Positions 32,283-62,704 of a stretch of 64,000 nt of DNA are shown here, piece after piece. The notes under the pieces were generated by a model. It saw only the letters and a list, made by a program, of their open reading frames with translations, searched no databases and was not told where the DNA came from. Numbering within the stretch: the stretch's first letter is position 1; the number at the start of each line of letters is the position of its first letter. The position numbers were made by a program, and so were the translations under genes. Source of the stretch: Schmidtea polychroa (lineage: Eukaryota); assembly GCA_044892525.1 (NCBI GenBank), contig CM097885.1, positions 18,726,001-18,790,000 on the forward strand, in the 5' to 3' direction.

Positions 32283-32479
32283 AATTTCGATTTATTTCGA
32301 TTTATTTCAATTTATTTCAATTTATTTCAATTTATTTCAATTTATTTCAATTTATTTCAATTTATTTCAATTTATTTCAATTTATTTCAATTTATTTCAA
32401 TTTATTTCAATTTATTTCAATTTATTTCAATTTATTTCAATTTATTTCAATTTATTTCAATTTATTTCAATTTATTTCG
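32283..32479. repeat. 10-bp tandem repeat (TTTATTTCAA)n
   Basis: About 19 units. Confidence 0.97.
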
Positions 32480-32521
32480 TTTACTTTTCGGTGTTTCAGA
32501 AGGTGGGTAAATTTCGAACAG

Positions 32522-32820
32522 CTACGTTGGCAGTGGTCGGATTTGTGCGGTTACCGCCGCGTCGATGACCCGCTGGTTCAGTTTGGTCTCCAATGCGCGT
32601 ACTTGAATCTTCAGAGCGTGGATTTCGATTTGATCTTGGTCTGCTTGGGACTGAAGCTGTTGGATTTGAGTCATTCGCTTTTTCATCTCGGCTGGACTGA
32701 ACCAAGTGCTTTCGAGCTCCCGACATCGCCCCTTAAATTTCGCGACTCTGGCCTGAAGGCCTTCCACTTGTTTTTGGACTTGCTCCCGGTCCTTCCTTAG
32801 GTTCTTGAATAATTTGAACA
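32522..32820 (-). CDS. Unknown coiled-coil protein exon, 'TWFSP' family (C-terminally shortened)
   Basis: RCRELESTWFSPAEMKK; strongly similar to 54011-54417; begins at acceptor ttgtAG|TG. Confidence 0.65.
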
Positions 32821-33160
32821 CTACAATTTAAAGAAATTATATATAGACACATGCAGATAATAATCATCTATTCGATATCAAACGTTCAATCTTATTCTAT
32901 ATCATTGGGTTCCCATCAAATAATAAAGTCCTCAAGACCAGTTTAAAACGAAAATCGTAAACGATTTTTTTAATATCCATCTAAAACCCAAGTACCATAA
33001 AAGGAATCAACGAAATAAACACAATATTGTTTTATTAATGGTAATCAATTCAAAACTCAAATATCCAAATGAAAATCAATGAAATGAATATAACAGAGAA
33101 AATCTCTCTGCGTAAAGAAACAGGAATCACCATCCATAGTCATAACAATCCTTGTGTGGC

Positions 33161-33452
33161 TCATAGGTCAGCCTTCCTAGGTCTTCCCCGTTTCTTAAAA
33201 GGGGTGGATCTGACTTCGGCCTCTTCGATCGGTGTTTCGGCTGCCTCTGCGCGAAGTTGGGCTTCGATCACCCGGAGCTTGTGTTGAGCGAACTCGATCG
33301 CCACGATGACCTGGTTGCGGGCCTTTATTAGCCAACCTCAGTTCACGACCTCAGTTCCACTCGTGGATCTTGTACTACACGTATCTGGTCCTGAGTCGGA
33401 TAATTGCTTCATCATACTGATCTTCCTCATTGCAGTTACTGAGTTGAGACAT
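33161..33452 (-). pseudogene. AT-hook protein paralog with stops and a frameshift/deletion
   Basis: MSQLSNCNEEDQYDEAIIRLRTRYV*YKIHEWN*G / IKARNQVIVAIEFAQHKLRVIEAQLRAE..TPFKKRGRPRKADL*; aligns with 54695-55060. Confidence 0.8.
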
Positions 33453-34968
33453 TTCTACATTGTTAAAGTTATAATTCCGTTTGTTGTCAGATTAATAATA
33501 ATTAAAACTCAATCTCAATTACGTCGAGTTCAAGTTAAATTAAAGTCGAGTTTAATTATCTATCTTTTTTTTCTTTTTGAAATTAATTTTCCCAATTAAT
33601 AATGAAAATAAAATTAATTTAAAACATTTAAATTATAGTAATTCATAAATCATTTCTAAAATTGCTATGTTAATTTATGTTTGTTCTACTGAGAGGTTTC
33701 AGCAAAATTATAAGCTCAACAATTTAAAATTATAAATTTTGGTTGTAAATAACTATTTTCAACAATTTACGAAATCAAACATACTTTTTCATGATGACCT
33801 AATGGTAGTGAAATTGCATGCATAAAACTATGGTTTTCACAAATTCAGAAGGAACACGGCAGGAAACCCTCGAGAATGATATCTATCCGCATGAGAGCTA
33901 TCGGTATCGCAGGAGTATCCAAGTTTGTGTATAATACAAAGGTAAAATTTTCTTTTCTTAAAACTTATAATGAGATGTCTAGGAAGAATTCCCTGTAGGA
34001 AGAATTCCGAATTAAAACTCTGGAATTGCCGATATGTATATCGAATTGTTTAGATGAACATTATTTCTATCAGTACTTTAAAATTCGAAAGGTTATTTAC
34101 GGAAAAGGACGACTGTCTTGTGAATTTAACATTTGTTTACCATAGTTAGAGATTTATTTAAGACCAATTACTAAATTATCAACTCATGAATTTGAGATAC
34201 CTATTAAGAATATCCACTTTGTTTGATTTACAATATTACACAACCAAATATTAGGGGAAATTTACCAATTATGATTTTTGTGATTCGAAATACCGATGGG
34301 CAATTACGAATATTAGTGTGATTTAGGCTACTATATAAACTTTGGAATAACCATCTACATTGAATGTTAATTAATTAAAGCACTGTGATCAGCTTACTTC
34401 TGGAGCTTTACTCCGTTTACTGAGCCTTAGTGTAGTGTGATGAGTTGATTTTGAGTTTATTATGTCGATTATTCATGTAACAAAAGTCAATTACGGAAAG
34501 TTGCTTGCTTTCGCGGCCACATTGTGTCCACTACGACGAGCCCTAGTGTTATGTAGGTTGATAATATACTATCGACATATAAATATTATGATAACTCAGT
34601 CAGTTCAGAGTGAGTTTACCGACTTAACTCCGTGGCAGATACCATGAAGTGGTGCGACCTCCACTGACACAAAAAAAAGAAATTATAATTGTTAGACGCA
34701 ATTAAATTCAAGTCTTCTTCAAGCATTTATTTTTATAACAACTTCAAAAATTGAGCCGTTTACTAGAATATTTAAACACCGAGGCATGATAATTATTAAT
34801 ATTAATGTAATTACTGGTCATACATTTAATTGATTTAATTTAATATAATATGATATAATTTAATATAGAATTTAAATATACAAATTTAACAGAAATAATT
34901 ATTTCTACTAACTGATCTCACTTCTACCATTTAACCATAATAATTTTATATAGAGATTTACTAACTCC

Positions 34969-37900
34969 TTACATCCCCCCTTCTTTAAAATGCTTTAACT
35001 TTTCTATATTCCTCGTTATTTTTCTCCCGTTTTCGTCTGTTAATAAATAACTTCTTTCATGATTTCGTTTTATTACTGTGTATGGTCCTTCATATCTCTC
35101 GTGATCTTTGTTTCTAATTTCTTGTTTCACCAATACTTTGTCCCCCACTTCTAAGTTCCTAGTTGTGCCAATTTCTTTCGCTTGCTGTCTTTTAGCCTCT
35201 AATTTCCGCATGATTTCATTTCTATTCACTTCATTATTACTATGCCATTGCGATCTATTAATCTTTCTTCCAAATATAATTTCTGCTGGACTCACTCCAG
35301 TAGTTTTTTGAGCTGTCGCATTTAAAACGTATTCTATATCAGGTATTAATTCTGCCCAGCTTTTTTTAACTCCTTCTCTAAGTGACGCGTTAATATAGTC
35401 TCTTATAATACGAAATTGTCTTTCAATTACACCATTAGTATTATGATGATACGGACTCGAAAATATCAACTCAATTCCTGCTGCCTTTGCTAGTTCTTTA
35501 ATGCTATTTGCTTCGAAATTTTTTCCACAATCAACATGTAGTTCCTTAGGGGCTCCAAATTTCAATATCCAATTATTTAACAAAACTGCCTTTATTGTAT
35601 TTTCATCTTGCTTTCTAATAGGAGTTAGAGATATGTATTTACTGTAATGATCGATTATTGCACAAATAAATTTTTCTCCTCTGAAGGTTTCTCTTAATGG
35701 ACCGCAAATATCCATGTATATTTTCTCCATAGGTTCTGAAGCTTGAATTACTTGGGTTTTTTCTTTTGACTTTGTAGTTAAAACTTTGTTTTTCTGGCAT
35801 GCTTCACATATTGAAATAGTCTCTTTTACTTCATTTAGCAAATCTTCCATATCAAAATTGTTCCTAATATATTTCATAACTTTTTCTACTCCTGCGTGGC
35901 ATAATAATAAATGTGTTTCCTTAATCGTTTCTCGTCTTTTTGTTTCTGGTATCCATATTTTGTTTTGATTGGTATAGATAATATTTCCTTTTAACATATA
36001 TTTATTATTTTTCCTTTCATGTATTTGATCTTTTATATCTTGTATTTCTGCATTATCTCTTTGCCATTCATTTCCATTATTTTCGGTCATCAATGTTAAC
36101 AATCTAGTTTTTAATCGCCCTGATTTGGGGTTATCATGGTCCATCAAACATTGTACACATTTGCCGCATGTGTTTCTAGACAGCATATCTGCATTCGTAT
36201 GCGCCGTACCTTTTCTGAACTCCATTTTTATGTCTAAACTGCTCAAGTAATTTATCCACGTTTGGAACTGTGCTGTTATCGGCTTCTTTGTCGTTAACAT
36301 AAAAGTTATTGCTTTATGATCAGTGCGCAAAACAAACCGTTTACCTTATAAATAATGGTTGAAATGGCGACAGAAATAATATATAGCCAAAAGCTCTTTT
36401 CGTGTTATACAATATCCTCTTTCATGGCTACTCATTGCATGGGATCCACATGCAATAACGTGTTCATGCCCCATTTCATCTCTTTGTGATAATACAGCTC
36501 CAATTGTATCAAAGCTTGCGTCTGTATCTAATATGAATTCTTTCTTGAAATCTGGAAATACGAGAATTGGCGCTGTAGTCAACGCCATTTTCATTTCTTC
36601 GAAAACTTTCTCACATTCCTCAGTCCAGATTATTTTTTCACTATTGCTTCCACATATGCTTTCTAGCGCTCTTGATTTTGTTGCATATTCCTTAATAAAT
36701 CTCCGATAATAGTTACATATACCTAAAAAGCTTCTCAAATTCTTTATACACTTAGGCCTCTGAAATGATTTAATAGCCTCAATTTTACTTTGATCTGTCC
36801 GAATCCCCTGACTGTTAATAATGTGCCCTAAAAACTTTACTTCGCTCTTTAATAACTGACATTTTTCTGGGTTGATTCTCAATTTAGCTTCCCTTATTTT
36901 CTCTAGAACTTTTCCAAACACATTGTAATGTTCTTCAATTGTTCTTGTAAAAATTAAAATATCGTCTAAATACACCATAACTCCTTCTTTCCATAGATCT
37001 TTCAATATTTTTGTCATTAATTCTTGGAATGTACCCGGTGCCGCCGCAATGCCAAAAGGCATTCTATTAAAACAAAATTGCCCTTCTTTAGTAGAAAATG
37101 CTGTCTTTTCTTGCGATTCTTTGTCCGATTTCACTTGATAATAAGCGTTCCCAAGGTCTATAGAACTAAAGTACTTAGATCCATGTAATGTATCTAGAAT
37201 TTCTTCTACATTCGGCATAGGAAAAGCTTGTCTTTCAGTAATCTTATTAAGCTGTCTAAAATCTAAACAAAGTCTGATATCTTTTTTGTCTTTTTTCCAC
37301 ACGCATACTAACGGCGTATTCCAAGGTGAATTACATCTTCTTATGATATCATTATTTTCTAAATTTTTTATAGCAGCATTTATTTTCTCCTCTAAATTGA
37401 TGGGTTGCCTTCTGGGTTTTATCATAATTGGCCCTTCTTTTGTGATGATTTTATGTGCAATTAAATCAGTACATCCGATATCCCAGTTATTAGCCATAAA
37501 AACACTTTTATTGTTTTTAACAATCTCTAACAGTCTTTTATTTTCGTTTAATCTTAGAATTTCTATTGCTTTTTGACTTCTCTCGTTATCTGTAATCTTT
37601 TCCCCAAATCTAGCTTCTATTTCACACACAAATTCATTATATCCTTCTTCATTTTGCTTGATGTAGTTTAATTCAATTCCAAACTCTTTCTGCAATTCCA
37701 CTCCGCCTATTTTATCTGGAACAATATTTTTAACTATTATAAATGTTATTTTTCTTTCCATATTACCAATTCTAACATCAATATATATTTTTCCGATTGT
37801 CTCTAATTTACTATCATTTGCACATCTTAACATCTCATCTGTTTTTATGATTTTCACATTCACTAATTTTTCCACAACTGCTTCTGCCATTACATTTACT

Positions 37901-37989
37901 CTTGCTCCTGTATCTAGTAAGCATTTCATTCTATACCACTGAATTTCAAGAGTTGTACTCGGTCTACCTTGCATTTTGTCATAACTCAA
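34969..37989 (-). pseudogene. Gypsy pol (PR-RT-RNase H-IN) split by one in-frame TAA at 36346-36348
   Basis: LLDTGA; RLCLDFRQLN; YLDD; DTDAS; HFNHYL*GKRFVLRTDHKA; integrase H..H..CEAC, MDICGP, HVDCG, GVIERQFR; GPY. Confidence 0.95.
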
Positions 37990-38360
37990 TTTCGGTCGTT
38001 TCCATTCATCTTTAGTGAAAATATTTTGCTCCTCTGATATTTCATTAATCTACCCAATTTCCTTTCTCTCTAATTTATCTTCTGCCTTCTTAATAAATTT
38101 ATAAACTTTTTCATTTACTATTTTATTATTATATTCTGCTTCTTCAATTTCATTATACTCTTCTTGATTCTTAGGATTATTATTATTATTTATTAAAGAT
38201 CGATCAGCATTAAAATAACTATAACATTTAAAATTATTTAAAGGAAACTTTTTAAAATTACAAATTTTATTACATAAAGGTTCTACATTATTATTTATAT
38301 AAGGATTATTTACATTATTAAAATTATTATGACCAATATTTACATCAATATCAAAATTAC

Positions 38361-38978
38361 CTAGTATATTGCTCCGATCATTGCCTCCCGTGTCGAAGCA
38401 TGTACTTTTGGGTGCTGAATATCCTCATATTTGTCTTCTGCATCATCTGAATACTCAAGTGGCATCGTCTCATCATTAGGTTCAATTGCTGCAATTGTTC
38501 TTCCTGGATTGTTGATCTTTTGTTGATAGCTTGTGGTTCGATGGGCATAATAATTATTGTTTCTCATGTTTGAATTAGTTTGAAACTTCCTTCTTTCCAA
38601 ATTTGTATAGCAGTCAATCTCCTTATGTCCACGTAAGTGACATCTCTGGCATTGAATCGTTGAACATTCTCGCCGTACGTGGCCTTCAACTCCGCATGCA
38701 AAACACGTCATTTTCTTTTTCATTTGGCATTCTCGACTCACATGACCAATTTTCTTGCATGTCCAGCATTCCAATTGTCGGTTACTGACGTTTTGCTGCT
38801 TGAAATTATTATTTCCGTTTACCATTCCTCTTTGAGCAACATCTCTGTAGCTTCTGTAGTTTTGAACAACCGGTGAAGTCTTCACAACCTTAATATGGCC
38901 CATAATTTTGTTTACCTTTTCTAATTTCTTTATTGTCGCTTTTATTTCTTCTGATGTTTTCAAGTCTTTTTCAAGCAT
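38361..38978 (-). CDS. C-terminal part of Gypsy gag with three CCHC zinc knuckles
   Basis: CWTCKKIGHVSREC, CFACGVEGHVRREC, CQRCHLRGHKEIDC; the ATG lies at the LTR/gag deletion junction. Confidence 0.9.
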   Translation of the reverse strand: MLEKDLKTSEEIKATIKKLEKVNKIMGHIKVVKTSPVVQNYRSYRDVAQRGMVNGNNNFKQQNVSNRQLECWTCKKIGHVSRECQMKKKMTCFACGVEGHVRRECSTIQCQRCHLRGHKEIDCYTNLERRKFQTNSNMRNNNYYAHRTTSYQQKINNPGRTIAAIEPNDETMPLEYSDDAEDKYEDIQHPKVHASTREAMIGAIY

Positions 38979-40928
38979 TTATTTTTATAACAACTTCAAA
39001 AATTGAGCCGTTTACTAGAATATTTAAACACCGAGGCGTGATAATTATTAATATTAATGTAATTACTGGTCATACATTTAATTGATTTAATTTAATATAA
39101 TTTAATATAATATGATATAATTTAATATAGAATTTAAATATACAAATTTAACAGAAATAATTATTTCTACTAACTGATCTCACTTCTACCATTTAACCAT
39201 AATAATTTTATATAGAGATTTACTAACTCCTTACAATAATATTGATAAATGCATGTCAGGCAGTGACCTGCAGTTGTCAAGGCTGTGGGCTCTATGACAA
39301 TGATGATTTTACTTTCAAATAAGACTCAAGACTGGCTTAGTTCGTGTATCAGAATACGAGCACTACGACCTGAGTCACTCTTGTGGAAAGGAAAAGAAAA
39401 AAAACATCGCAATATTAATGTATTAGAATTATAATAATACAAACATAATCGACAAATATCCTTTAACTTGGATTTTAACTTAGATTTAACTTGGATTCAC
39501 AATCGACAAATATGGTTCAAAACTTTTTGGCATAAAGAGAATAAGTTTGTGACGAAAATGTGGCGGTATATATACCTATTCTTGTGTGTTCGAGTACGTG
39601 TGTATGTATTGTTGCATAAAACAAACTCGAAATCTTTTTAATTCTAGAACATTTTATTTTTGATTTGTGATGATTTTAATGGCAATTCTTGTGCCATAAT
39701 TTTTGTTTTTATTTTTAAAATTTTATTTTTTAATTAGTTTTCGTTAAATTTGCCTCCATGATGGATTTAGGCATTTCCAGAACATTCCATATTAAATTAA
39801 AGTTAATTTTTATTTTAGAATCGTTTTTCTGAATTTTTTTCTTGAATTTTTATTTTTTAAACTAATTTATTTATTTTTATTAACTTTATTGTATTGAATG
39901 GCTTCCATGATGGATTTCGCCATTTTTATGAATTGTTCTGGATTTTTGGCTAGAATTTAGTATTTCTACAGTTTTTCTACATTATTCAAGTTTGTTTTTG
40001 TATTTTTATGTTTCTCTGTTATGTTTGAGTTAATTTCCTGTGATACATCTTGCATTTATTTGATTTTATTTGTAATTTAAATGTTTTTATTTTCTGTTAT
40101 TTTTCTACTAATTATTATTGTTTATTTGATGTTGTCTATTTTTATTTACGTAAACTTACTGCTGGGTGTGCATGTTATGTACCACCACATTTCATCACTT
40201 TTTCCAAGATTTTGGGTCTAGAATGCAGTTCTAGCCCAACACATGCTTATTAAATTACTAACTTAGAGGGTGTACGAATTTTTTTCGCCGAAGCTTTCCA
40301 CATATAGACACCCGAGTGTTAGGGCATGTTTCCTTCACTAGCTATCATCCACAGTGGGCACAAGGTGCAACAGTGTGAAATGTGCAGATAAACTGCTTAC
40401 AACTCCTCGTAAGTCCCAATGTAATGTTTTACTGACTTCCAGTTTAGCTTGGTGACTTGAGACAAAAAATTTTATGATTTTATTCATTGAAAGTATTGTC
40501 GTCTAGTGAAACTAGAAAACAAAAATCAAATTAGTGGTATGTCATAAAACTAATAAAAAGATTCTTACTTTCAAAGTCAAAGCGCCTTATTACAAAATTT
40601 AGAAATTTTGGTATACCAAAAAATTCTGCACTAAATTGTGACCGTTTATATACTCTAATTTTTGTTTGCAAGTATGTGTGCGTGCATTGATGCAGTAAAT
40701 TAAATTCGAATTATTTTAATTATATTTAATTTTGACTCTAATTTTTATCAATTTTTTATTATTTATGATTTTATTTAATTCGTTTTGCTTTCTTTGATTT
40801 TACTTCACTTAGGACTATATCTGTGTGCATTTCGATCGCAACCCACGTTTACACGAGTAACAAATCAGCTTTTGCAAAAAATACGAAAGGTATAAATGGT
40901 AAGATGATGAGGGTACAGTAAGAAAATA

Positions 40929-41133
40929 GGGCGCTACACCTTTTACGGTAACTCATAAACCCCAGGGAATGTTAGGCCATTGGAAATTCTTATGTTAGGG
41001 CTCACATTTTATTGACCCCATGGCGCTTGCGACGGACGTTTAGTGATTAAATAAAATAATTATGCTCAGTTATCAGGGGAATGTAGGTATTACCAAAGCA
41101 TTGTCAAGGTTTCCTATACACGAACCCACCAGT
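40929..41133 (+). ncRNA. Degenerate copy C of a putative structured non-coding element
   Basis: acaccttttacggta ... gctcac ... aacccacca in the same order as in 53617-53822(-). Confidence 0.4.
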
Positions 41134-41734
41134 TTTCAGGTTGAGTCTCATCGCTCCTTGTGAGCGGGGGATTTTGATGTCGGAAACATTGAGCAGAGAA
41201 ACACAGAGACTCCAATTAGATGAGTGGGAAGAAAGGTCTTTCGAATCCGGATCCGGTCTCTACTCCATGCGCTTTGACAAACGTACAATGATAATTTTAA
41301 AAAATCCGTATTTTAAGAACCAGTTCTTCATACCAAAATTATTTTAGCAACAGGCTTGACAGGACAGTGCGAATCCATAGCAGCACATTACTATATGCAA
41401 ATAGCCATTACTAAAGTTAAACTTAATAACGATTTTAGTTAAATGGATGAAAGCTTTTGAAGAAATTGTTTATAATAGAAAATTTAAAATAGAATTTATA
41501 TTTCTAACTCTTAATAATAATTTCCAAATTTCTGATTGTAAGTAAATTCTTAATAAATCTAAAATATATATTAATATATTAAGATAATTTTATTTCTAAA
41601 TTAAATTACGATAAATTAAATTTCTAAATTTGAAACATCATCAATTTAAAATTATTTTATTTTATTAATTTTTATTATTTTCGTTTGTTTAAAAATTAAT
41701 ATTGAAGTATAAAATTAAAATATATAAATTAAAT

Positions 41735-42922
41735 ATGACTGCCGACTGGAATTATGACTCTGATGATGATCAAAAGAAAAATAATTTATCTAGTACTTCA
41801 CGGAAAAAGTCAGGTTCAAGTAAATCACCTGAGTCAAAAGTTTTTTCAGATACTGATGGTGCAAACAATTTATCTAAGGGAATTAGCAATCGTTCCAAAA
41901 CTAATCCAACTCCTGATCCATCAACTTGTATTGGAATATTCGGATTATCGAAAAAAACTAGCGAGCGTACATTATGGAAGACTTTTGGGAATTTTGGTAA
42001 GATTAAAAGTGTATCACTTATTGTAGATAAGTTCACGAAGGAATCACTTGGATTTGCATTTATTAATTACGAAGTGCTAGATTCCGCATCAAATGCTATT
42101 AAAGAAACAAATGGAATGACTTTGGATTCTAAAGTTGTTCGGGTTGATTATAGCATAACAAAAAAGGCTTATACGCCAACTCCTGGCAGTGGTTATAAAG
42201 GAAAAATTATCAGCCGGGGAGCTAGAGATATGAAAAAAAATTTTAAAAGAAAATATTCACCGAGGTCCCGATCAAGAAGTACAAGCAGAAAGCGGTCAGC
42301 AATGAAATATTTAAGTTCAAGACATTCACCCGTTGCTCCAATGTATATTTCAGATAAGAAAGATTCATTTAGAAGATATGAATCTAGAAGGCATTCTCCA
42401 GAACCTCGCTTCGAAATGCACTATTCCTCACATAGAAATGTCAGAGACTACTCTCCAATAAATAGAGAACAAAGAGGCTTCTCTCCTAGTAGAGATGATG
42501 CAAGAAATTATTACTCTGATAGACCGATTTATCCAACAAGGAATTATTCTCCTCCAAGAGATTTCCGTCGAGGTTATTCTCCAAGAAATGATTTAAGAGG
42601 TAACTCGCCATTCAAAACAAAATACAGTGAGTTTTGTCCCAGTGAAGATATGAGAATCGGTTTTCAGCCTATGCCTAATGATATAAATGACTACTCTATT
42701 AGGCAAGTGAGGGAGTTTTCTCCTGCAAGAAATGGTGGACATGTTTATTCCTCAGTTAAAAACTTTAGGAATATCAGCCCTATGAGGAAAGGTGTTAGAG
42801 TTTATTCTCCAACCAGGGAGTTAACCCCGGTTAGGTATGGGTACAGACAATATTCTCCCGTTAGAGTTGAAAAATATAAAGATCGCATCGCGGTTGACGA
42901 TAATCAGCAATTTTTTTACTGA
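41735..42922 (+). CDS. tra2: Transformer-2-like RRM / RS-rich splicing regulator, intronless, 395 aa from first ATG
   Basis: PDPSTCIGIFGLS..TSER.L..F..FGKI..V.LIVD..SLGFAFINY..NGMTLDSKVVRVDYSITKKAYTPTPG is the Tra2-specific RRM plus linker; RS tract follows. Confidence 0.9.
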   Translation: MTADWNYDSDDDQKKNNLSSTSRKKSGSSKSPESKVFSDTDGANNLSKGISNRSKTNPTPDPSTCIGIFGLSKKTSERTLWKTFGNFGKIKSVSLIVDKFTKESLGFAFINYEVLDSASNAIKETNGMTLDSKVVRVDYSITKKAYTPTPGSGYKGKIISRGARDMKKNFKRKYSPRSRSRSTSRKRSAMKYLSSRHSPVAPMYISDKKDSFRRYESRRHSPEPRFEMHYSSHRNVRDYSPINREQRGFSPSRDDARNYYSDRPIYPTRNYSPPRDFRRGYSPRNDLRGNSPFKTKYSEFCPSEDMRIGFQPMPNDINDYSIRQVREFSPARNGGHVYSSVKNFRNISPMRKGVRVYSPTRELTPVRYGYRQYSPVRVEKYKDRIAVDDNQQFFY

Positions 42923-44288
42923 GTTTGATTTTAAATTGTTAATTTGACAATTGTAATTTAAAGTTGTGGTGGAGAATATAAATTAAAATATGATGCTCAA
43001 TAAATATTAGTTGTATGTTTCGATGTAATTAGTTTTCTAATATTAACAAGATAATCGATGAAAAATTTTAATCCAAAACTTCTGGAAGACTGGAAAATTT
43101 TGGTTTATATTTATTTTGAATTTTATGAACATTTGTTTGCTTGTCCGGAGTTATAAGTGCAAGAAATTGTAAAGGTCAAAAATGAAGAAATTAATGTTGG
43201 AATGATAAATCAAGAAATAAGTCTTAAGCAATTCTTAATTTTGTTCAATTTATTTTTAATTAGAAGCAAATGTATTTTATATGATATTGAATTGCAGTTC
43301 TGATGAATTTTGTTTATAGTTAAATAAATGGCAGTATTTTTAGTAAACGTTTTTAAACTAATTTAAATTAACAACTTGCTTTACCAGATTTTTGCTTAAA
43401 GTTTGTTTTTACGTACTTTATTTCATCTTTAATTGGGAAATGAAATTAATATCATCGTTATTGTGTTAAGTATTAACTGTTGCAACTTTGGCGCCATTTT
43501 TGTTTTTGAAAATACATTTGTTTAAAATTTCACATTAATATGACCTTGAAATCTTTATAATTTTAATAATGCTAATAAATTAAAACCCCTAATATATTTT
43601 TGGAATTTTTACTATACTTTACAAAATTATTATTGTTTTTTTGATAAAAAATTGTAGTGTTTAAATTATAAGTCAATTATTTGCTCTGATGTTTTCTAAG
43701 ACTTTAGACTAGCAACTTTAACCGATGAATCTCGACCTAACAGATTAATTTATCGTTTTATAGGCTGATAAAATCTTTAAAAACAACAAATCACTTTCAG
43801 CCAGATTAATAATTCGTTCTTATAACTGCAAATTTCCCCCTCTCTAAAAATCATGTTATAAAGTAGAAATTGAAAGTAAACTAATTTTTAAGCGAATAAA
43901 TTTCATTTCTCTCGCAACAGCGTCATCTGATGTGTAATTTTCCACCTGGTTTGTGTCCCGTATGATACACCAACCGGCATTTGATTATCATCAAATGGCC
44001 ATTGATTTGCATATTTAATAATATAAATATTAACTTACCTATAATAAATGTGTGTGTGTCATAGCCAGAAGGGCCATTGATTTATCATGCGGACATTCAA
44101 TTAGCTCTTACACTATAGAAAGATAGAAAAAATCGCTGTTGGAAGAAAAATAAATAAATACATACAAACACGGTTCTATAATAAAAAATACACACTATAG
44201 GACATTGATTTATCATGCGGACATTCAATTAGCGAAAAATTTTCCATTTAAAATTAATTAATTATAAAAAAATATACAAGAATATGTC

Positions 44289-44720
44289 AGAAACTTCATC
44301 AGAATCGTCTATTTCATTTCAAGAAATACATAGATGAATTCTCTTCAATACATGGACGAACAAGAGCTTCGGTAGATCACGAGTAGGCAATAGAATTTAT
44401 AACAATATACCAACAAATCGAGGTCTCAATTTTCAAAGATGAGCTAATCCATTTACAATAATATATCTTCATTGACTATTCAAATAGAAAGGTTGCCATA
44501 TAATCCATTTTTGAACCCCATCGAAAGTGTTGAGCAAAATTAAAAATGGGGTAAGAACTAAAGTTTCTTCGGTTGATGGATTTTCCAGACAGATTTACCT
44601 TCGATGAATGATTTACTGCAATATTCCAAGCAGTTAACGAGGAACTTCGGAAACCAGATCATAATAATTTCAAAAATCATATTAATAATCATATTAAAGA
44701 TGCTTCCCTAAATTCTTGAT
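44289..44720 (+). pseudogene. Internally deleted Tc1/IS630 transposase relic
   Basis: IDE / FNTWTNKSFGRSRVGNRIYNNIPTNRGLNF ... RLPYNPFLNPIE, with frameshifts. Confidence 0.7.
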
Positions 44721-45235
44721 ATTTTAATAAAACTATGAAAAATTTAATGTATATTATAATAAATAAATAAATATCTTACTTCTTTATTCATTATTTTTAA
44801 AAAAATCTTAAAATTAACTAAAATCCAGAACAAAGCTTATTTGACAAAGCTAAATGAATGTCTCATTTATGATAATTAAATGCGCTTTGGTGTAGTGTCG
44901 AACGAAATCGTCAGTTTTTTGGGGAAATATATGCCGTCTACCAATTGGTCAGTTAATGAACGGTGATTAATTGTCGATTCTCGCGTCTGTGTGCGCTTTT
45001 TACTTGGTTGATTTGAATTGTGTGCGCACACAGACGCGGACTATTGTGAGTATTATTTTTAAGTTTATTTGATCGAGGTCAGAGTTTTTGATGGTATCGA
45101 GTTTTGGGTGGATGTTTCGAATGGTTTTTAAAAAGATATTTCTGATCGAGTTGAATCTTGAGTCTTCGAATTTTTGAAATTCCTGTGCTTTTGGCCAAAT
45201 ATATGATTTCAAATCAAGTTTTTGAGATTTCTTCA

Positions 45236-45660
45236 ATGGATTTAATTAACGAATCAAATGATCATGCTATTCAACGCAACAGGGGCGTTCACATATCTCA
45301 GAATGGTAAATGTGTGACGTGCAAGGATGGATTTATTGAAAGACTTGAATCTGATAACTCAATGGAAGGTAATGATGATGCCTTGAATGTTTTTCATATT
45401 ATTCGTCATGTTCCTGTTGGAAATACTACAAACGAAACTGATGGTTTCTTTTTTATGACTCCAAAAGATCCTGATGTTTTCAGATCAAAGTTTTGACAAG
45501 TGTGTAACGAGTATTAAGAATCAATTTGAACAAAATGGTCCTCCACTAGCAAATGAGGCAGATATTGAGAAATTACAAGTCAAGAAAATCACCGCAGCTA
45601 ATGATACAGGTTTCAGTTGTCTGTCAGATTATGAGGTGGCCGATGAAGTGTACGAGTTTC
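45236..45660 (+). pseudogene. RNF115/RNF126-like E3 ligase remnant (Zn ribbon + start of RING-H2), frameshifted at ~45480
   Basis: GKCVTCKDGFIERLE resembles CPRCESGFIEEL; IKNQFEQNGPPLANEADIEKLQVKKIT..SCLSDYEVADEVYE resembles [34 protein letters not shown]; RING truncated. Confidence 0.72.
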
Positions 45661-48179
45661 TCCGTCGAGAAACGCAGACGATTACTAAGACGATACTAAG
45701 GACCAATCTTCAAAGGACAATTAAACAAACGCAATGTGAACTTACATTCACTTTACTAGGCAATGATGCATATACGTCAAGAGGATAGTTTTCGACAAAA
45801 GGTGATCTCCGCTTCTCAGAACTACTAGTTCTCAGACACTTCTTGGTTTCATAGACCACCGTTATGTCTGTTTCAAGTGTGTGTGGTTCCTAATTTATTT
45901 CTTTAACAAACTTCACCCATAGGACATTTCTCTTAATTTCACGTAATTGTAACGTATCAATCTTTTATTAACCTGGTAATGATCAATCGACAATTAAATT
46001 TATTAAAAAGGAAACTAACTAAAAAATGAATTCCCTATTGTTAAAGCTTAGGGTTGAACTACTTGCTATCTCTAAGGAGATGACGTGGTCTATAGCGATT
46101 ATTAGGATACCCTTAGAATAACCTTATTGTACCCTTGTAAACTGTATACAACTCTCACTTTAGTACTATATGATGTGGTTAAAATTCAAAATTGGAACTA
46201 CTACTCGATTGATCTACTCTTTTTATCTCAGACTGCCAATAGAAGTGTTTGGCAAAAATTGATTTTAGACCCAAGTATAGGCATAAAGACAAAATACATA
46301 GGAACACACTAACATAGCACTAAGTTAAGCTAAATAAAAAACATGTGAAAGCATCAAATAAACAAAATTAATAGAATTCACATCAGACAAGTAATAAATC
46401 AAAATTTAAAGATAAAAATCAAACAAAAGCAAGAAGTATTACATAAAATCCACAACAGAAGTAAACAAATTTTAATTAACGTTGATAAAGAGAAAAAAGG
46501 AACTGAAATCAGAAAGATTTCCATAAAATGATATCAAAAAGCAAATTAGAAATAAAATTTATGACAAAAACAAATGAGAAATCAAAACATTTGCAAAAAT
46601 CCATCATGGCCGCCAAACACCTTAACAAATTTAACAAAAAATAAACATTTGGAAATTAAAATTAATAAAAAGTAAAAATAAGTAACACAAAATTACCAGA
46701 AAATAAGTATTGCATATTAAATATACTGAAAACAACATAGAATAATCTGGGGAAACGCTCATATACATCATGGCGGCAAATCTAATTAAAAATAAATAAA
46801 ATTTGGAATATAAATACAAGTAGATTTTAAAAGTTAACCTTGATGTGTTCAGAGCATGCAGAAAAGAGAGAAACAATATTCAACCAATATGGATGCAGAG
46901 GCTGGCACATCATCTACAGACTGCTATAGGGCGTCTCAACGCGAACAGGATGTTGTGGTTTGGCTCATTCTAAGAGCAATTTTCAATAGCCATGTAGAGG
47001 CTAGGACATAAATAATAATAAGAATAAGTATAAATAATTAATAATTACTAAAATTAGAATAAATTAATATAAATAGTTTAGATAAATAAATAATTACTAT
47101 ATATGGAATAATTAATTACTATAAATAATAAAGACAAGTAGAATACTATAATAAGTAATTCATAAATAAATATATGTATAAATAGTAATATATAATTACT
47201 AAAATTAGTATTTACAATTATTAAATTAATATAAATAAGTCAGAATTTCTTAGTTAAGGGAGAAATAAATATTGTACGGTGCTGACAAAATCGATAACGA
47301 TTAAGCAGTGATTTACAGGAAAATTCTTTTCTACCAGTTTGTGAAGTTTATCATTGCAGAGAAAATAGCAGCAGTTACCAAGGCAATTAACCAGTCACAG
47401 TAGGTAGTTAGGAGCCCACTGCCGCAACCCCCCCCCCCCCTGCGGCAACTTTTTTTTTGCGGTAACTTTTTTATTACGCAATTGTTCCACACTATAGTGA
47501 GAGGGTCTCGATGGTCCTGGGATTTTCAATACAAAAAAAATTTTTTTCAATACAAAAACGATGGTCCTGGGATTTTCAATACAAAAAAATTTTTTCAATA
47601 CAAAAATCCGACTATCACTAAAAAAGCATGGAATTTTCAGACTATAGTGAGGGGGTCTCGATGGTCCTGGGATTTTCAATACAAAAAAAAATTTTTCTAT
47701 ACAAAAATCCGACTACCACTAAAAAAGCATAGAATTTTCACACTATAGTGAGGGGGTCTCCTTGGTCCTGAGTATTTCAATACAAAAATCCGACTACCAC
47801 TAAAAAAGTATGGAATTTTTCGCACTATAGTGAGGTGGGTCTCCTTGGTCTTGAGAACTTCAATAAAAAAAGGTGGTCTACACTAAAAAAGCCACGGATT
47901 TTTCAGACTATAGTGAGGTGGGTCTCCTTGGTCCTGAGAATTTCAATAGAAAAAGGCGGTCTTCAATAAAGAAGCATGGTAATTTAAGGTCTCAGGATTT
48001 TTTCAATACAAAAAGGCGGTCTTCAATAAAAAAGCATGGTAATTTAAGGTCTCAGGATATTTTCAATACAAAAATCCGACTATCAATAAAAAAGCATGGA
48101 TTTTTCGAATTAAATTAAGGTGGGTCTCCCTGGTCCTGAGAAAAAGGTGGTCTACACTAAAAAACGTGGTAAATTTTTC

Positions 48180-48760
48180 AATTAAAGTAAATTATGGCTC
48201 AAATTTTTGAATTACAGTAAATTATGGTCCAAATTTTTCAATTACAGTAAGTAATGGGTCTAAAAATTAAATTACAGTTAATTATGGTCCTAAAAAATTA
48301 AATTACAGTAAATTATGGTTCTAAAAAATTAAATTACAGTAAATTATGGCTCAAATTTTTAAATTACAGTAAATTATGGCTCAAATTTTTCAATTACAGT
48401 AAATTATGGTTCTTAAAAATTAAATATACAGTAAATAATGGTTCTAAAAAATTAAATTACAGTAAATTAAGGTCAAAAATTTTGAATTACAGTAAATTAT
48501 GGTTCAAATTTTTCAATTACAGTAAGTAATGGGTCTAAAAATTAAATTACAGTTAATTATGGTCCTAAAAAATTAAATTACAGTAAATTATGGTTCTAAA
48601 AAATTAAATTACAGTAAATTATGGCTCAAATTTTTCAATTACAGTAAATTATGGTTCTTAAAAATTAAATATACAGTAAATAATGGTCCAAATTTTTAAA
48701 TTAAAGTAAATTAAGGTTCTAAAAATTAAATTAAAGTTAATTAAGGTCCAAATTTTAAAT
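48180..48760. repeat. ~29-30-bp tandem array (aattacagtaaattatggt(c/t)c(t)aaaaaatta)
   Basis: About 20 degenerate units just inside the left TIR. Confidence 0.9.
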
Positions 48761-49074
48761 TAAGTAATCAATGGTAAAAAATTTTAAATAAGTAAATTAA
48801 AGTAAATTAAAGTAAATTAAAGTAAGATTTTAAAATTTAATTACAAAATAATAGAAGGTGTTTGAGAATTGAAATTTTTTAATGAAATTTTTTATGAAAT
48901 AATTTTTAAGTAATTTTTAATAGAAATTTTAATGAATTATTTTTCAATGGTAATTTTTAATGGAAATTTTTATGAAATATTTTTCAATGATAATTTTAGA
49001 TGGAAATTTTTAAGATAATTTTTAATGAAAATTTTTATGAAATATTTTTCAAAGATAAATTTTAATAATAATTC

Positions 49075-49745
49075 AACAACAAACCAACAACTTAGTACCA
49101 ACAACCAGTAACTTACGAACATGTATTAACAACCAGATACCTACAACTAGTTACTAACAACCAGTTACCTGATACCAAGTACCTACAACTAGATACTAAC
49201 AATATGTTACCAGATACCAAACACTTACATCTAGTTACTAACAATCAGTTACCTGCTACCTAGTACTTACAACTAGTTACTAACAACCAGATACCTGATA
49301 CCAAGTACTTATAACTAGTTACTAACAACCAACTACTTACAACTAGTTACTAACAACCAGTTACCTGCTACCAAGTACTTACAACAAGATACCAAGTACT
49401 AAGCACTGTCAACTAGATACCAAGCACTGACAACCAACATCAACCAGGTACTAAGCATTAATTACCAACTACTAAGTACCTACCAAGTACATACAACCAA
49501 CATCAACCAGATACCTACAACTAGATACTAACAACCAGTTACCAAGTACCTACAACCACCTACCCATTAACTAGCTACAACCAGCTAACAACTAGCTACC
49601 AACTACCAAGTACTAACAACCAACAACCAGCTAACAACTAACTACCAGATACCAACTACTTACAACCAACAACTAAGTACTAACAACCAGCTAACAACTA
49701 CATACCTAGTACTAAGCATTGTCAACTAGATACCAACCAGATGAC
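49075..49745. repeat. Strand-biased degenerate array (caactagttactaacaaccag / taccaagtac)
   Basis: Direct inspection; related tracts at 50260-51100 and, reversed, 11915-12270. Confidence 0.85.
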
Positions 49746-50129
49746 CACATGAAATTATTGGTTAAATAAGTAAATTAATATTTAATTTTTAAATTAACTA
49801 ATCAATGGTCTAAAATATTAAAGTCAATTTAAGATGAAAGTTTTCTGGGATTTTCAATGTTAATTTTAGATGCAAATCTTCGTCAATTAATCAATGACCA
49901 CATGAAATTATTAGTTAAATATGAAAATAAGGATTATATTTAGTTGTTAAATTAAGAAATAAAGGATAAATAGGTAAATTAAGGATAAGTAAATTAAAGA
50001 AAACAATGGTTTAAATTTTAAATTAAAGCTAAATGAGTAAATTAAAGTAAGATTTTTAAATTTATTATCAAAAGATTGAATAACCACCAACTTTTTTGAG
50101 AAATGTAATTTTTAATGAAAATTTAAATG

Positions 50130-50131
<2 letters not shown>

Positions 50132-50200
<69 letters not shown>
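50132..50200. repeat. (AAT)n microsatellite
   Basis: Direct inspection. Confidence 0.97.
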
Positions 50201-50203
<3 letters not shown>

Positions 50204-53200
50204 TTAATAATAATTATAATAATAATTAAACATTTACCAACAATCGGTTACTAAATATTTTTAACTAGGTGCTAACAAATAAGTACCAAATACTTACAAC
50301 TAGATACCAAGTACTAACTAACTCTCAAACAACCACATACTTACAACTAACTACTTACAATCAACTAAATATTCTTTATTATATTTTATGAAATGTATTT
50401 TTTAAAATTAATTTTTTATCTATATTCAAAAATATATTTAATTACAATCAGTAGAAAAACCTTTTCAAAATGTCTAAATTTAGCAAAAATGTTGATTTTC
50501 ATCAAAAAACCACAACTCAACCACTTTAAAACACCACGTGAAATTCAAAATAATTTAAATTACAATGAAAGACTAATGAATTCTAATTTACAAAACATTC
50601 TTCTTTTAAATGATAACTACTGAATTATTATGACAAAGTAAAAATCACATTCAATAAATACTTATTGTTGATCAGTTTTATTATATATACTCTGAGTTTA
50701 TCCGACAGGATGTTTTGACCCCCCTAAGGGTACAGGTCGTAAGGGTATTAGTCGTAAGGTTGCTGGTCGTAAGGATATTGTTAACTCTCAACCCCCACCT
50801 ACCCATTAACTACCTAACAAGTACTAACAACCAAGTCTCAAACAACTAAATACTAAACACTTACAATCAACTAACAACCAGGTACTAAGCATTATCAACC
50901 TACAACTATATAACAACAATCAGTAAACAACACTGTACCAACTACCAAATACAAGATACCAACAACTTAGTACCAACAATCAACTAACAACACATAAAAA
51001 TAATAGCAATTAAATACAAAATATTCTTCATCACATACAATATCTTCTTATCAAAATCTAAAAAGTCGACCAACTACTTACAACCAACAACTATGTACTA
51101 ACAAATTAATCTTTAAAAGAAAAATACTCATCACTTGAAAATTAGATGGAAAATTAATTGAACTCAAGGCATCAATAACTAGGTAAAAATTGATTAAATT
51201 ATTGTAAAAATTTAAATTATTCAAAATATACCAAATAATTATTATAAAAATTAAATTAATGGACAAGAAAAAATTCTAGTCATTAATCATCCAGTAAATA
51301 AAAAAAAATATTGATCATTCAAGTTAATATGAATCAACTAAGATAATAAATTAATAAAAATTTTGAAATAAGATCTAGTAGATAATTGATTTAGATTGAA
51401 TAAATTAATTGAAATAAAATTAATTTTAAGTATTTTTTTTAAAAGTACTCAAATTGATTGACTTATTTCTCAATATATTCAAAAAATCAGTATAAATTCA
51501 TTACAATTATCAAAGTCAGCAATCTACAATAAAAATAATTATCATTAAATTCCAAAAGAGACTAGATAGCTAATGATAACATCTAACAAACCAGTATTCA
51601 AAAGATTCCCATCGAAACCCTTCCCTCATTAAAAGCAACCGACTATATCTTTCTTAAAATGAAATATTTCCCATATTAACCGACTATATCCCTTTAAAAA
51701 TCATATATTCCCATCTTAACCCATCCCTCATTAAATTTAACCGACAATATCCCATCTTATCCGATCTCTCAGCAAATAATTCTACCCTTTTAAACATCTA
51801 TCCGATTATATCCCTTATTTTCCCTAAAGATTTCACCCACTTGAGCCCTTTAATATATATCAATCCTCTTAAAAACCTCAGAGAACTTCAAAAATATGAC
51901 TTTTAATTAATTGTTATAAAACCAGACAAATAGTAAGAGCCCATTAAAAGATCAAAATTCACTAAATTTTCTACAAATATTTACCATCAAATAAAAATAC
52001 ATCCAATTATCAAGAAATTAATTAAATTTATCTTAGAATTAGCATTAAATTATTAAATATTCATTCAATAAACATGAAATTTGCAAAAATGTTAGAAATC
52101 CACAAAAATAATAGAAATTTACAAAAATCAAAGAAATTCACAAAAATGATAAAAATTCATGAAAATGATAGATATCTACAAAAAATTAAGGAAATCCGCA
52201 AAAATAATAGAAATTCACAAAAATGATGGAAATTAATGAAAATGATAGAAATTCATAAAAATGATAGAAATTCATAAAAATGATAGAAATTTACTTGAAT
52301 AAAACCATCAACTTTAAAAATTATCAATACCTTAAACATCAAATTTGCCTAAATAATCATTCAAATAAAAGCATTAAATGATCAGTACCCTTGCGACATG
52401 TTGAATGTGAGTAGTACCCTTGTGAGCAATACCCATAGGGGGACAGAATATTTTGTCGGATAAACTCAGAGTATATATTAATTAACTCATTCAAATTTAT
52501 CATTGAATTAGTCAAATTATCGTAAATTTCGATAAAAAATCTAAAGTGGTAAGCAATGTAAAGAGAAATATTCTTTAAACTTTGATAGGACCAAGGAGAC
52601 ACCCTCACTATAGTCAGAATAATCCATGCTTTTTTATTGAAGACCGCCTTTTTCTATTGAAATTCTCAGGACCAAGGAGACCCACCTCACTATAGTCTGA
52701 AAAATCCTTGGCTTTTTTAGTGTAGACCACCTTTTTCTATTGAAGTTCTCAAGACCAAGGAGACCAACCTCACTATAGTGCGAAAAATTCCATACTTTTT
52801 TAGTGGTAGTCGGATTTTTGTATTGAAATTCTCAGGACCAAGGAGACCCCCTCACTATAGTGTGAAAATTCTATGCTTTTTTAGTGGTAGTCGGACTTTT
52901 GTATAGAAAAAAATTTTTTTGTATTGAAAATCCCAGGACCATCGAGACCCCCTCACTATAGTCTGAAAATTCCATGCTTTTTTAGTGGTAGTCGGATTTT
53001 TGTATTGAAAAAAATTTTTTTTGTATTGAAAATCCCAGGACCATCGAGACCCTCTCACTATAGTGTGGAACAATTGCGTAATAAAAAAGTTGCCGCAAAA
53101 AAAAAGTTGCCGCAGGGGGGTTTGCGGCAGTGGGCTCCTAACTACCTACTAGTCACTGCCACAGAAATTTACTATAAAAGCGAGAAGCAAAATTCATTTA

Positions 53201-53616
53201 GCAGAAACATTTGTTCAAGCAATTTTGCTTAGAATAAAATATCAAATTCAAAGAGAGATTAAAAGCTATAAAGCTTCTTGGTGAATTGATCACAGAAAAG
53301 GGAATCCAACCAATATTTTGAACCGTGAAGTTATTTGAATATATTTAATTTTCAATAAAAAATTTAATTGCACAACCCGGCCACAAGAACCAGCATTTCT
53401 GCCTATCCTACTCGTTGGAGATTAAATTTTCAGAGGGTTTAGTATAGGTAACGCTAGATCAAACTTGATCTAGTCGATCGCGCAAACTTCGGGAAATCCC
53501 TCCTTCTTGTCCCAAACTTTAAATACAGTGCTATGAGCAATTAGAGGGGATTCTGTAGGGACTCAGAACATTACTACCAGTGGTCTCAAGAAGTAATTTA
53601 TTTTATAATCTATATT

Positions 53617-53822
53617 GGTGGGTTACTGGTGGTCGAGTGTTTAAGTGCTGTTACCAGCGTAACCCAGGATACAACATTATTTTTCCGCTTGGTACCCGTT
53701 GAGTAATCAACGTTGGTACTGTACCAAGGGGTGAGTACTCGCAAAAAGTGAGCGCATCAAGGCACTATAATTGTCGAGTACTCTATGGGTTCACGGACTA
53801 CCGTTAGAAGGTGTGTGTCCGA
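53617..53822 (-). ncRNA. Putative structured non-coding element, copy A
   Basis: Stems GAGTACTCG/CGAGTACTC; GTACC-AA-CGTTGA(ttac)TCAACG-GGTAC; TGGGTTA..CTGGT/ACCAG-TAACCCA; motifs shared with 59984-60250. Confidence 0.55.
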
Positions 53823-54010
53823 TTTATCAGGTCCCTTATCAAAATTGTTTTCCCAACCTTACGCACAAACTCTCACTTCTCAGGCAATCACAAAAGGTAT
53901 TGGATATTATTTTAATATTACAAAATCTGTGTTATTTTAATGCTACAACAAGGTACAAGACACACTACCAAATGTACACAAAACAACATCTCGTAACAGT
54001 TCAGATCGGC

Positions 54011-54417
54011 TTATTGGCGGAGCCTGGCCTTTAGTTTCTTTAGTTTCTCCCGAATGTTCCGTCCAAGCCGCTTTCGTTTAGGCTTACTTTCAACTACTGG
54101 GGGATATATTGTTGCGAGCTCCACGGCCAGTGGCCGTATTTGTCTTGCCACGGGCTCCTGCACCAACTGCTCATTTCGCGCAGTTTCGAGCGCCCGCACC
54201 TGTAGTTTCAGGGCGCGGATCTCCATTTGGTCTTGTGCGGCCTGTGCCTGCAGCTGGAGGATCTGGGTTGTTTTCTTCTTCATTGCTTCGGGACTAAACC
54301 AGGTCCCCTCAAACTCCCGACATTTTCCTTTCAACTTGTCCACCCGGATTCGGAGTTCATCGGTTTGCTGCTGGGCCTGCTCACGATCCTTGCGTAGGTT
54401 CTCCATCAATTTATACA
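54011..54417 (-). CDS. Unknown coiled-coil protein exon, 'TWFSP' family, basic NLS-like C-terminus
   Basis: Open frame KCREFEGTWFSPEAMKK...SKPKRKRLGRNIREKLKK; preceded by ctaat + polypyrimidine + AG|TG acceptor; GC-rich island. Confidence 0.72.
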
Positions 54418-54694
54418 CTAAAAAGAGAGAAAAAAAATTAGTTTCCATTACATCCAAAAAGAAAGTTAAAACCAATGACTAGTAAAATTAATGAATCGAT
54501 ATTAGCATTTCTACTGAGGTATCTTCATACTCTTCCATCTATCAAGTAATGCACAGAACAAAAGAAAACACTTTATTCGAGAATAAACACCCGACGTCTA
54601 TTGGTATACAAAACGAAATTAAATTAAACACAACGACTGCTAATAGTTCATTCATATAAACGTGAGTTGTCTAAGTTAAATGAATTGTCCACAA

Positions 54695-55060
54695 TCACAA
54701 TGGTTGCTTGCGGGGCCTCCCCCTCTTCCGCGGAGTTACCTCGGCATTTTCGAGCTCCTCTAGGGATACCCCTTCTCTCTGGACCCGAAGTTGCAGTTCC
54801 AATCTCTTCAGCCGGCTCTGAGCGATTTCCACATCAACGGCCGCTTGATCTCTGGCCTCTCGGAGTGCGTTGTTCTCCGGCTCCGTCTTCACCCATGCCG
54901 GGGCATCCGGTTCTGGACCACTTCTGATAACTGGACCAAAGTTGTCAAGGTCCAATCCACGATTCCAGTCATGGATGCGGTACCAAATATACCGCGTACG
55001 GAGCCGGGTAATCATTTGTCGGTGGTTCTCTTCATCGCTGGAGTTACTTGATTGTGACAT
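54695..55060 (-). CDS. 121-aa unknown protein with C-terminal AT-hook (KRGRPRK)
   Basis: Intact ATG-stop ORF; canonical AT-hook core; paralog at 33161-33452. Confidence 0.75.
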   Translation of the reverse strand: MSQSSNSSDEENHRQMITRLRTRYIWYRIHDWNRGLDLDNFGPVIRSGPEPDAPAWVKTEPENNALREARDQAAVDVEIAQSRLKRLELQLRVQREGVSLEELENAEVTPRKRGRPRKQPL

Positions 55061-56099
55061 ATCTATGATTATCCAAAATATAAGACTGTTGATTATTACA
55101 TAGAAAAAAAATTGTTGAAACTCTAGGCTTAAGATTAAATTTCTACTAGCAATCCATAGCCAGGGAGTTCACCTAAGGGACTTTACTACAACATCTATCT
55201 TATCAAAGGCATAACCCGTTGATACCTGCCTCAGTGGTGACTTAGCCGACAACAGTCAAACAGAACAGACAACCCCCAGAGAAAAAATCTAAAATTTTGT
55301 ATTTTCGTCTGCGGTTTATTTATATTCATTATAATATTCGACCTGACGACGTAGTTTCTTCTTAAAATTGGAATTAAGAAGCAAATTCGATTGTTTTAAT
55401 GGTTCAAAACCATTAATTGATGGTTTACATTATAGTATACTATTTAAAATTTCTAAATTATCTAATTTAGATTTTTAATTTATTATTAACCCAATTGGCT
55501 TCAAAGAAAATCTTCGTCGACGGAGAGATTCGTTGTTGAATCGTATTCCAACGCCTCTTCGTCAGCGAAGCCGTTCATAATAGTCTAATCCGCTTTTTCA
55601 TATATTACTCCTCCTTCTTTAGCTTGTTCAGAATCTACTCCATCAACCACATTCCGTCGGAAATAATTGCTTTATCTGTGACTGGCTCCTCAGCATTACG
55701 GAAGATTTCGTTGTTGGTTGGTACGAAGAATGATCGATCTGAGAGATCTCCCTTCACGGTAGATTATTTTAAGATATGGTAACTCAGGTCTAGTTTAAAA
55801 TTTAACATTCTTTGTCAAGATTAGCAACAGTGATTATAATGATGGTATTTATGATTAATAATGATTATAGGGCACGAGTCCCAATATTAACTAGCATGCC
55901 AGGGTTCATGGCAATTCTACTTATAAAGCGCATTATGTAGTCCTACTTTGAATCACCTATTATAATTTTTAAAACCCAAACAAAAAATTTTTAGATATAC
56001 TTTGTGGATGGATAATTTCGAATTTTATTTTGATCCTAAGAATCAACTATGCTGTATGAGTAGGTGTTTATGGATTATGTTGCGGAGATTGGGAGTAGG

Positions 56100-62648: not shown

Positions 62649-62701
<53 letters not shown>

Positions 62702-62704
<3 letters not shown>

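Follow-up and report, generated by a model that had tools for sequence, protein, structure and literature searches.

A repeated, probably GLT2-type unit in Schmidtea polychroa with putative alternative last exons for an AT-hook protein and a basic-tailed coiled-coil protein

A 64,000-nucleotide stretch of the genome of the planarian Schmidtea polychroa (assembly GCA_044892525.1, contig CM097885.1, positions 18,726,001 to 18,790,000; hereafter the window) carries two copies of a small gene pair, in which a gene encoding an AT-hook protein is followed by the TWFSP gene (TW). The setting is eukaryotic, AT-rich and filled with transposons. The pair probably belongs to a highly repeated unit that is a partial GLT2-type transposon, likely of the long terminal repeat (LTR) kind, within which the two genes would be alternative last exons making two predicted nuclear regulators. 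The transposon family is probably a known planarian one; the proteins of the unit are undescribed so far, and it carries a conserved hairpin.

The first-pass annotation of the window had described a fixed two-gene cassette that is present twice. The two pairs are indeed homologous, both lie on the minus strand in the order AT-hook gene then TW gene, and the spacing reported as similar measures 341 nucleotides (copy 1) and 278 nucleotides (copy 2) from the AT-hook stop to the TW acceptor. The pair is not fixed, however. Over the 64 kb of the window, a profile search detects four TW copies, distributed over both strands, and copies 3 and 4 have no AT-hook gene; "twice" thus applies to the pair itself and not to the TW exon. 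A profile of the AT-hook protein run over the window returns only the two known copies, and RGRP occurs in exactly two places in all six frames, those of the two AT-hook copies. Because four TW copies face two AT-hook copies, and because copy 2 has a third, decayed exon-like stretch (without Pfam match), the unit is a variable exon array whose AT-hook/TW order is kept in one subfamily. The suggestion of a co-travelling mobile-element module is supported in the sense of a part of a larger transposon unit, and is narrowed to that subfamily (2 of 4 TW copies with an AT-hook exon). For the suggested roles in integration targeting or counter-silencing, no evidence turned up in either direction. Only copy 2 is open, the pair of copy 1 being damaged by stops and a frameshift (Table 1).

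Table 1. Parts of the repeated unit in the window (positions counted from the first letter of the window).
Feature	Coordinates	Strand	Remarks
TW exon, copy 1	32479..32820	-	AG/TG acceptor, without own start codon, early stop at 32524, cut by microsatellite
TW exon, copy 2	54011..54417	-	Open, 134 codons past AG/TG acceptor; ATTAAA at 53941 and 53916
TW exon, copy 3	58993..59729	+	Divergent subfamily, frameshifted; two possible acceptors (58993, 59000); AATAAA at 59842; AT-hook exon lacking upstream
TW remnant, copy 4	31533..31680	+	AG/TG acceptor, stops; without AT-hook exon; nearest to GLT2 probe by eye
AT-hook exon, copy 1	33161..33454	-	Broken; acceptor-like AG before 33454, ATG at 33452, RGRP at 33190, AATAAA at 33036
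AT-hook exon, copy 2	54695..55062	-	Open, 121 amino acids; AATAAA at 54577
Third exon-like stretch, copy 2	55501..55789	-	Decayed, acidic, upstream of AT-hook exon; acceptor-like AG in same phase; AATAAA at 55484
Upstream structured block, copy 1	34505..34689	-	66% identical to copy 2 (E 8e-15); gypsy inserted at upstream edge
Upstream structured block, copy 2	57511..57696	-	Fold z -2.7 on sense strand; highly repeated in DNA runs
Downstream structured block, copy 2	53665..53825	-	Bulged hairpin 53728-53688; most repeated part of the unit
Downstream structured block, copy 3	59955..60165	+	Matching bulged hairpin 60085-60125
59-bp piece	53558..53616		Identical (inverted) to 61252-61310, part of Bcl-2-like gene

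The repetition of the unit was assessed by aligning the contigs of four public runs to positions 53200-60400 at 80% likeness; copy 1 lies outside this range. Summed depth, which is not a copy number, reached in run X2 1.09 million over the downstream block, 368,000 over its upstream counterpart, 130,000 over the core of the copy 2 TW exon (TW2), 40,000 over the part encoding the TW C-terminus and 31,000-39,000 over the AT-hook exon, with 1,000-2,700 in the middle and 200-330 for three difference-free contigs. The profile of run X5 has the same shape. In qualitative terms, the depth of the unit in both runs is hundreds to thousands of times that of the difference-free contigs. This shows a large dispersed family with conserved ends and a variable interior. 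Within the window, copies 1 and 2 show borderline similarity in their middle regions (score reached by 1 of 50 shuffles), and the likeness is not significant for the stretch upstream of the gypsy insertion in copy 1 compared with copy 2 (57/200 shuffles) or for the flanks of copy 4 (168/200 and 81/200).

Searches for protein relatives agree with such a dispersed exon. A profile built on three TW sequences retrieved 11 proteins from 1.84 billion, nine of them with the TW motif, and a wider profile retrieved 11 among 8000 scored, eight of which were new. The TW-bearing cluster representatives total 17, namely 16 MetaClust gene models and one free-standing protein of 157 amino acids from a short ENA contig. 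In 13 of the 16 gene models, TW is fused to an unrelated host domain (e.g., MCM6, SNF, actin, PTP, or furin), the pattern expected if a dispersed exon gets swept into gene predictions. Two profile matches without the TW motif, P0003 and P0010, were dropped as coiled-coil or repeat noise. With TW2 as a single query, none of 57 candidates was related. The ESM Atlas gave no match at or above 0.9 for either protein, and a delta-antigen entry scoring 0.77 was regarded as a chance match. No relative was found in viral contigs, metagenome contigs or phages.

The TW exon was once under coding constraint. The products of copies 1 and 2 are 59% identical (E 1.8e-41); the copy 1 frame (TW1) is interrupted by a microsatellite of 10-nucleotide units at 32284-32478. 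Over 97 codons, the differences between TW1 and TW2 fall on codon positions 1, 2, and 3 in the proportion 23/20/64 (binomial p 2e-8), which shows this past constraint. The TW2 model (predicted local distance difference test, pLDDT, 81) comprises two long helices broken at W-F-S-P, a proline-rich linker and a basic C-terminal helix. Among the 16 representatives in which the motif was located, 11 have a basic patch with at least 6 Arg/Lys per 12 residues following the coil. Third-position GC in the exons of all copies is 0.50-0.59, vs 0.22-0.28 in the neighbouring gypsy, hAT, Tc1, and RRM open reading frames (ORFs).

The identity of the family is suggested by the GLT2 probe of Table S1 in PMC8532177. 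Read by eye on its reverse strand, this probe contains an AT-rich intron, an AG/TG acceptor in the same phase as in the window and a TW-type coiled-coil protein with the W..P motif, in an exon that is GC-rich within an AT-rich genome. By eye again, and not by an alignment tool, 19 of 42 aligned residues are identical between the probe and copy 4 of the window, and 8 of 13 between the probe and copy 2 around the W..P motif. The AT-hook exon is absent from the visible part of the probe. GLT2, a Repbase-based transposon name used for Schmidtea mediterranea (PMC8532177; PMC10954484), designates an element repressed by SMEDWI-2, whose RNA is neuronally enriched and which is desilenced without SMEDWI-2 (PMC8532177). 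The accessible part of that study describes the RNA only, not proteins, exons or hairpins. In the literature searched, which leaves Repbase Reports and the original Burro papers outside, no description of TW or AT-hook proteins was found. The probe of the related GLT, read by eye, encodes a different small protein, similar to the C-terminal region of P0020; this gene model contains a TW exon as well. Neither the GLT probe protein nor the tail of P0020 has measurable similarity to the AT-hook protein, and a likeness seen by eye between the AT-hook coil and the P0020 tail was rejected after failing BLAST and hidden Markov model (HMM) tests. GLT and GLT2 thus look like related elements in which the partner exons differ.

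The way these exons are bounded is compatible with splicing. Each is preceded by an AT-rich stretch and an AG, and the acceptor-like site leaves two bases before the first full codon at all six clear sites; in TW copy 3, one of the two candidate acceptors has the shared phase. As had been noted, the ATG stands two nucleotides past a TAG in both AT-hook copies; YAG is found two nucleotides ahead of 51 of the 2051 ATGs of the window (2.5%). Three TW exons start with TG. TW1 has no in-frame Met until residue 45, so that this exon needs an upstream exon; TW2, the copy 4 remnant and the AT-hook exons have an early Met of their own. A poly(A) signal lies past the stop in all five exons checked. The acceptor-like sites of common phase and the separate poly(A) signals are what would be expected of several exons spliced from one leader, as the first-pass annotation had envisaged, and the joint that would establish it is missing from those listed (see below).

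For the AT-hook exon, the sign of coding constraint is weaker. The two proteins had been described as sharing sequence motifs, and they do align, with 45% identity in the N-part and 43% in the C-part (combined E 7.5e-17), but in copy 1 the quoted motif spans in-frame stops at 33377 and 33353. With these stops and a frameshift near 33335, the hook of copy 1 is out of frame with its ATG. The codon-position bias is weak (p 0.02 overall, 0.17 in the C-part). When the 22-residue tails are isolated and compared with Pfam AT_hook (PF02178, cut-off 17.4 bits), copy 1 scores above the cut-off (18.7 bits) and copy 2 below it (15.9 bits); in the Pfam scan of the whole protein AT_hook was not detected at E 0.1. 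The window copies share with AT-hook proteins of the HMGA type the K/R-R-G-R-P core at the C-terminus, with an RGRP core and basic flanks. They differ from HMGA in having one hook only, behind a predicted coiled coil, and in lacking other HMGA features. The single-sequence model (pLDDT 69) predicts a helix, a linker, a coiled-coil helix and the single C-terminal hook. Because a coiled-coil helix is predicted next to one hook, binding of DNA as a dimer can be proposed. A complex prediction for TW with the AT-hook protein scored 0.06; it gave no answer and was used neither way.

At both ends, the unit carries conserved non-coding blocks. The score of the downstream blocks of copies 2 and 3, a region picked by eye, was reached by none of 200 shuffles. 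Each contains a 41-nucleotide hairpin of identical fold, in which all 14 pairs are kept, four altered on both sides (compensatory) and one on one side. Random changes retain all pairs in 12 of 200,000 trials, a figure for two sequences chosen after inspection. The G-U pairs of the hairpins fit the exon-sense strand and point weakly to a sense RNA. The hairpin has a lower stem, an 8-nucleotide bulge on the 5' side, an upper stem and a single unpaired base; the bulge is complementary to a TGG-starting motif in the upstream block. This layout recalls, as a general likeness only, the priming-signal stem-loops of reverse-transcribing elements. CA then TGG, considered as a possible primer-binding site, is found in both upstream blocks; no polypurine tract (PPT) followed by TG was seen. 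The sense strand of the copy 1 upstream block folds no better than its shuffles (z -0.2), and in Rfam scans neither the upstream nor the downstream block matches any family. Hammerhead, tRNA, and Polinton-end readings are unsupported. Six metagenome loci matching the upstream-block pattern have 61-64% GC and no similarity to the window, and were set aside as chance matches. The 59-bp piece that matches part of the Bcl-2-like gene probably represents filler DNA where copy 2 is truncated.

It can be proposed that transcription starts from a promoter close to the upstream block and yields a leader, which would be cis-spliced to any one of several last exons, each closed by a separate poly(A) site. 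The leader would supply one base and, for the TG-starting TW exons, the splice would complete the start codon. A start codon made by splicing has a precedent in the env of insect gypsy, one that our literature search did not return. The products would be two coiled-coil proteins, one bearing an AT-hook and the other a basic tail, both predicted to be nuclear. A dimer of the first would bind AT-rich DNA, most simply the AT-rich promoter region of the element itself. The basic tail of TW would bind RNA of the element, and the conserved bulged hairpin is a candidate site, since its position past the TW poly(A) signal would confine it to read-through RNA. The tail may equally serve as a nuclear import or localisation signal only.

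By analogy, one may go further and imagine that the element, as a planarian LTR retrotransposon family, independently evolved a module in the style of complex retroviruses, whose regulator roles are named in PMC7264820. A leader and alternative last exons would yield an AT-hook transactivator and an arginine-rich, Rev-like protein with a splice-made start codon, and binding of the latter to the hairpin past the internal poly(A) sites would switch expression to full-length RNA. This extension is speculative and, in our view, rather doubtful. The likeness to Rev/Rex and its response element, Tat/Tas, and HBZ of human T-cell leukaemia virus (HTLV) would lie in small, likely spliced products, a candidate arginine-rich patch beside predicted helices that may oligomerise, and a conserved stem-loop that the short mRNAs would lack. 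In contrast with the hosts of those regulators, the element here is not a retrovirus, and there is no sequence or fold match: no PDB sequence match, no BFVD fold match under E 0.001 and no Pfam match above cut-off were obtained.

Several observations weigh against cis-spliced last exons of a GLT2-type LTR element. No spliced joint of GT-AG type occurs among the 15 joints listed (54 more are unlisted), and contigs run from exon into intron in both of the runs guessed to be RNA (X8, record 28; X7, record 20); as these runs are merely guessed to be RNA, their coverage and gaps were not taken as evidence on expression. Donor and leader exons are represented by listed candidates, none of which was identified as such. 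Phase agreement by itself is weak, because the acceptors represent three independent exon types. For the AT-hook protein, no homolog was found outside the window in any search (with the single protein, 0 of 14 candidates were related), and the exon is therefore tied to GLT2 by position alone; this blank counts for less because the deep profile search was made with TW. The by-eye reading covers 400 of the 485 letters of the GLT2 probe, and that GLT2 is filed by Repbase as a Gypsy LTR element is our assumption. None of the copies, all of which are truncated or interrupted, yielded paired LTRs, a target-site duplication or PPT+TG, and no gag or pol domain was found in 48 read-through frames around the copies.

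These gaps leave room for other origins. The one that survives best, though we regard it as unlikely, is that we are dealing with accessory genes in antisense orientation, carried in the 3' portion of a giant LTR element of the Burro or Grande/Retand kind, whose genome RNA runs the opposite way. Introns and internal poly(A) signals, which are hard to square with a genome RNA of the same sense, would for that reason survive retrotransposition. Between pol and the 3' LTR, ORFs in antisense have been described, and the accessory ORFs of LTR elements, sense or antisense, are of unknown and possibly regulatory function (PMC7264820). The small conserved ORFs of Grande (gene23), Retand, RIRE2, and PvRetro13 likewise belong to multi-copy elements, some of their products are nuclear and a regulatory role has been proposed for them (PMC7264820); the window differs by its several acceptor-preceded exons, separate poly(A) signals, AT-hook and conserved hairpins, and by an LTR class that is only inferred. 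Burro/GYPSM1, a giant gypsy-like element, also is planarian, reaches very high copy number and has accessory ORFs and internal tandem repeats, but its cargo lies mostly in one polyprotein (PMC6431247); for the cassette of the window, no gag-pol link was found. Purine tracts do border both upstream blocks on the antisense strand; they are, however, not followed by TG. Moreover, no pol remnant stands beside any copy and no LTR end was found, the G-U pairs of the hairpin work in the exon sense (a weak pointer), and the RNAs of GLT2 and BURRO1 differ in tissue pattern (PMC8532177).

Quite improbable, in our estimate, is a DNA element of the Polinton or Helitron-like kind, in which several late-type exons would receive a common leader by splicing. 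Such elements normally have introns and separate poly(A) sites, which would require no special explanation, and copies 2 and 3 adjoin both an intron-bearing Bcl-2-like gene and a 5.75-kb element (47399-53150) with long inverted ends starting with AGTAG, a 6-bp duplication, inner tandem repeats and no long ORF, whose ends we take to be Polinton-type from their signature. However, these ends and the duplication bound 47399-53150 and leave the cassette outside, no inverted repeats were found between the upstream and downstream blocks, and no pPolB or integrase domain of Polintons lies near the cassette. The Bcl-2 piece is 77 nucleotides from the hairpin in copy 2 and more than 1 kb from it in copy 3. 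GLT2 and Polinton-1 are separate entries in Table S1 of PMC8532177. As for Penelope-like elements and Terminons, the Rfam scans returned no ribozyme family, and no reverse transcriptase was found next to the copies.

Separate cistrons resolved by spliced-leader trans-splicing, the other half of the original proposal, or a host orphan family amplified by segmental duplication, are highly improbable. Trans-splicing takes place in Schmidtea (PMC12582326), an acceptor-like site and a separate poly(A) signal go with every exon, with about 300 nucleotides in between, and the AT-hook exon carries its own ATG. Flatworm spliced leaders, however, finish with AUG (PMC12582326); at none of the five acceptors tested would this codon be in frame, which makes the mechanism a poor fit, and TW1 has no Met before residue 45. 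The highly repeated non-coding blocks, the decayed copies and the match to GLT2 speak for a transposon.

If the unit is a GLT2-type transposon with alternative last exons, it bears on an element already in use, since GLT2 is an existing marker of tissue-specific transposon desilencing in planarians whose encoded products are undescribed in the accessible part of that work (PMC8532177). The exons define two protein families without a Pfam family, plus a conserved RNA hairpin, and such exons contaminate many host gene models. Should the proteins be regulators, they would make it possible to test directly how the neuron-enriched expression of a planarian transposon is controlled by the element itself, and whether the logic of Rev and its response element exists outside retroviruses.

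Other elements surround the copies. The gypsy at the edge of the copy 1 upstream block is a Ty3/gypsy element (34690-39235, minus strand) with two LTRs 96% alike, the 5' LTR shortened; its own LTRs and an ATTAT duplication identify it as a separate insertion, and a third copy of the LTR lies at 9239-9515. The Bcl-2-like gene (61105-61460, minus strand) matches PF00452 with E 2.6e-6, below the cut-off, and has a 45-nucleotide intron (61275-61231). An open hAT transposase of 591 amino acids with a BED finger occupies 17348-19123 (plus strand). At 41735-42922 (plus strand), an intronless RRM/RS ORF of 395 amino acids, TRA2-like by eye, is possibly a retrocopy. Two ORFs at 14467-15213 (minus strand) and 45203-45496 (plus strand) consist of a proteasome-subunit fragment fused to a short repeat and have 57 bp in common (inverted), which suggests captured gene pieces. 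Finally, two identical hairpins (13126-13186 and 63435-63495) resemble mir-753, a planarian microRNA family, with 61.8 bits against a cut-off of 62, and lie in a dispersed 1-kb repeat (12359-13342 and 62700-63651; 94%).

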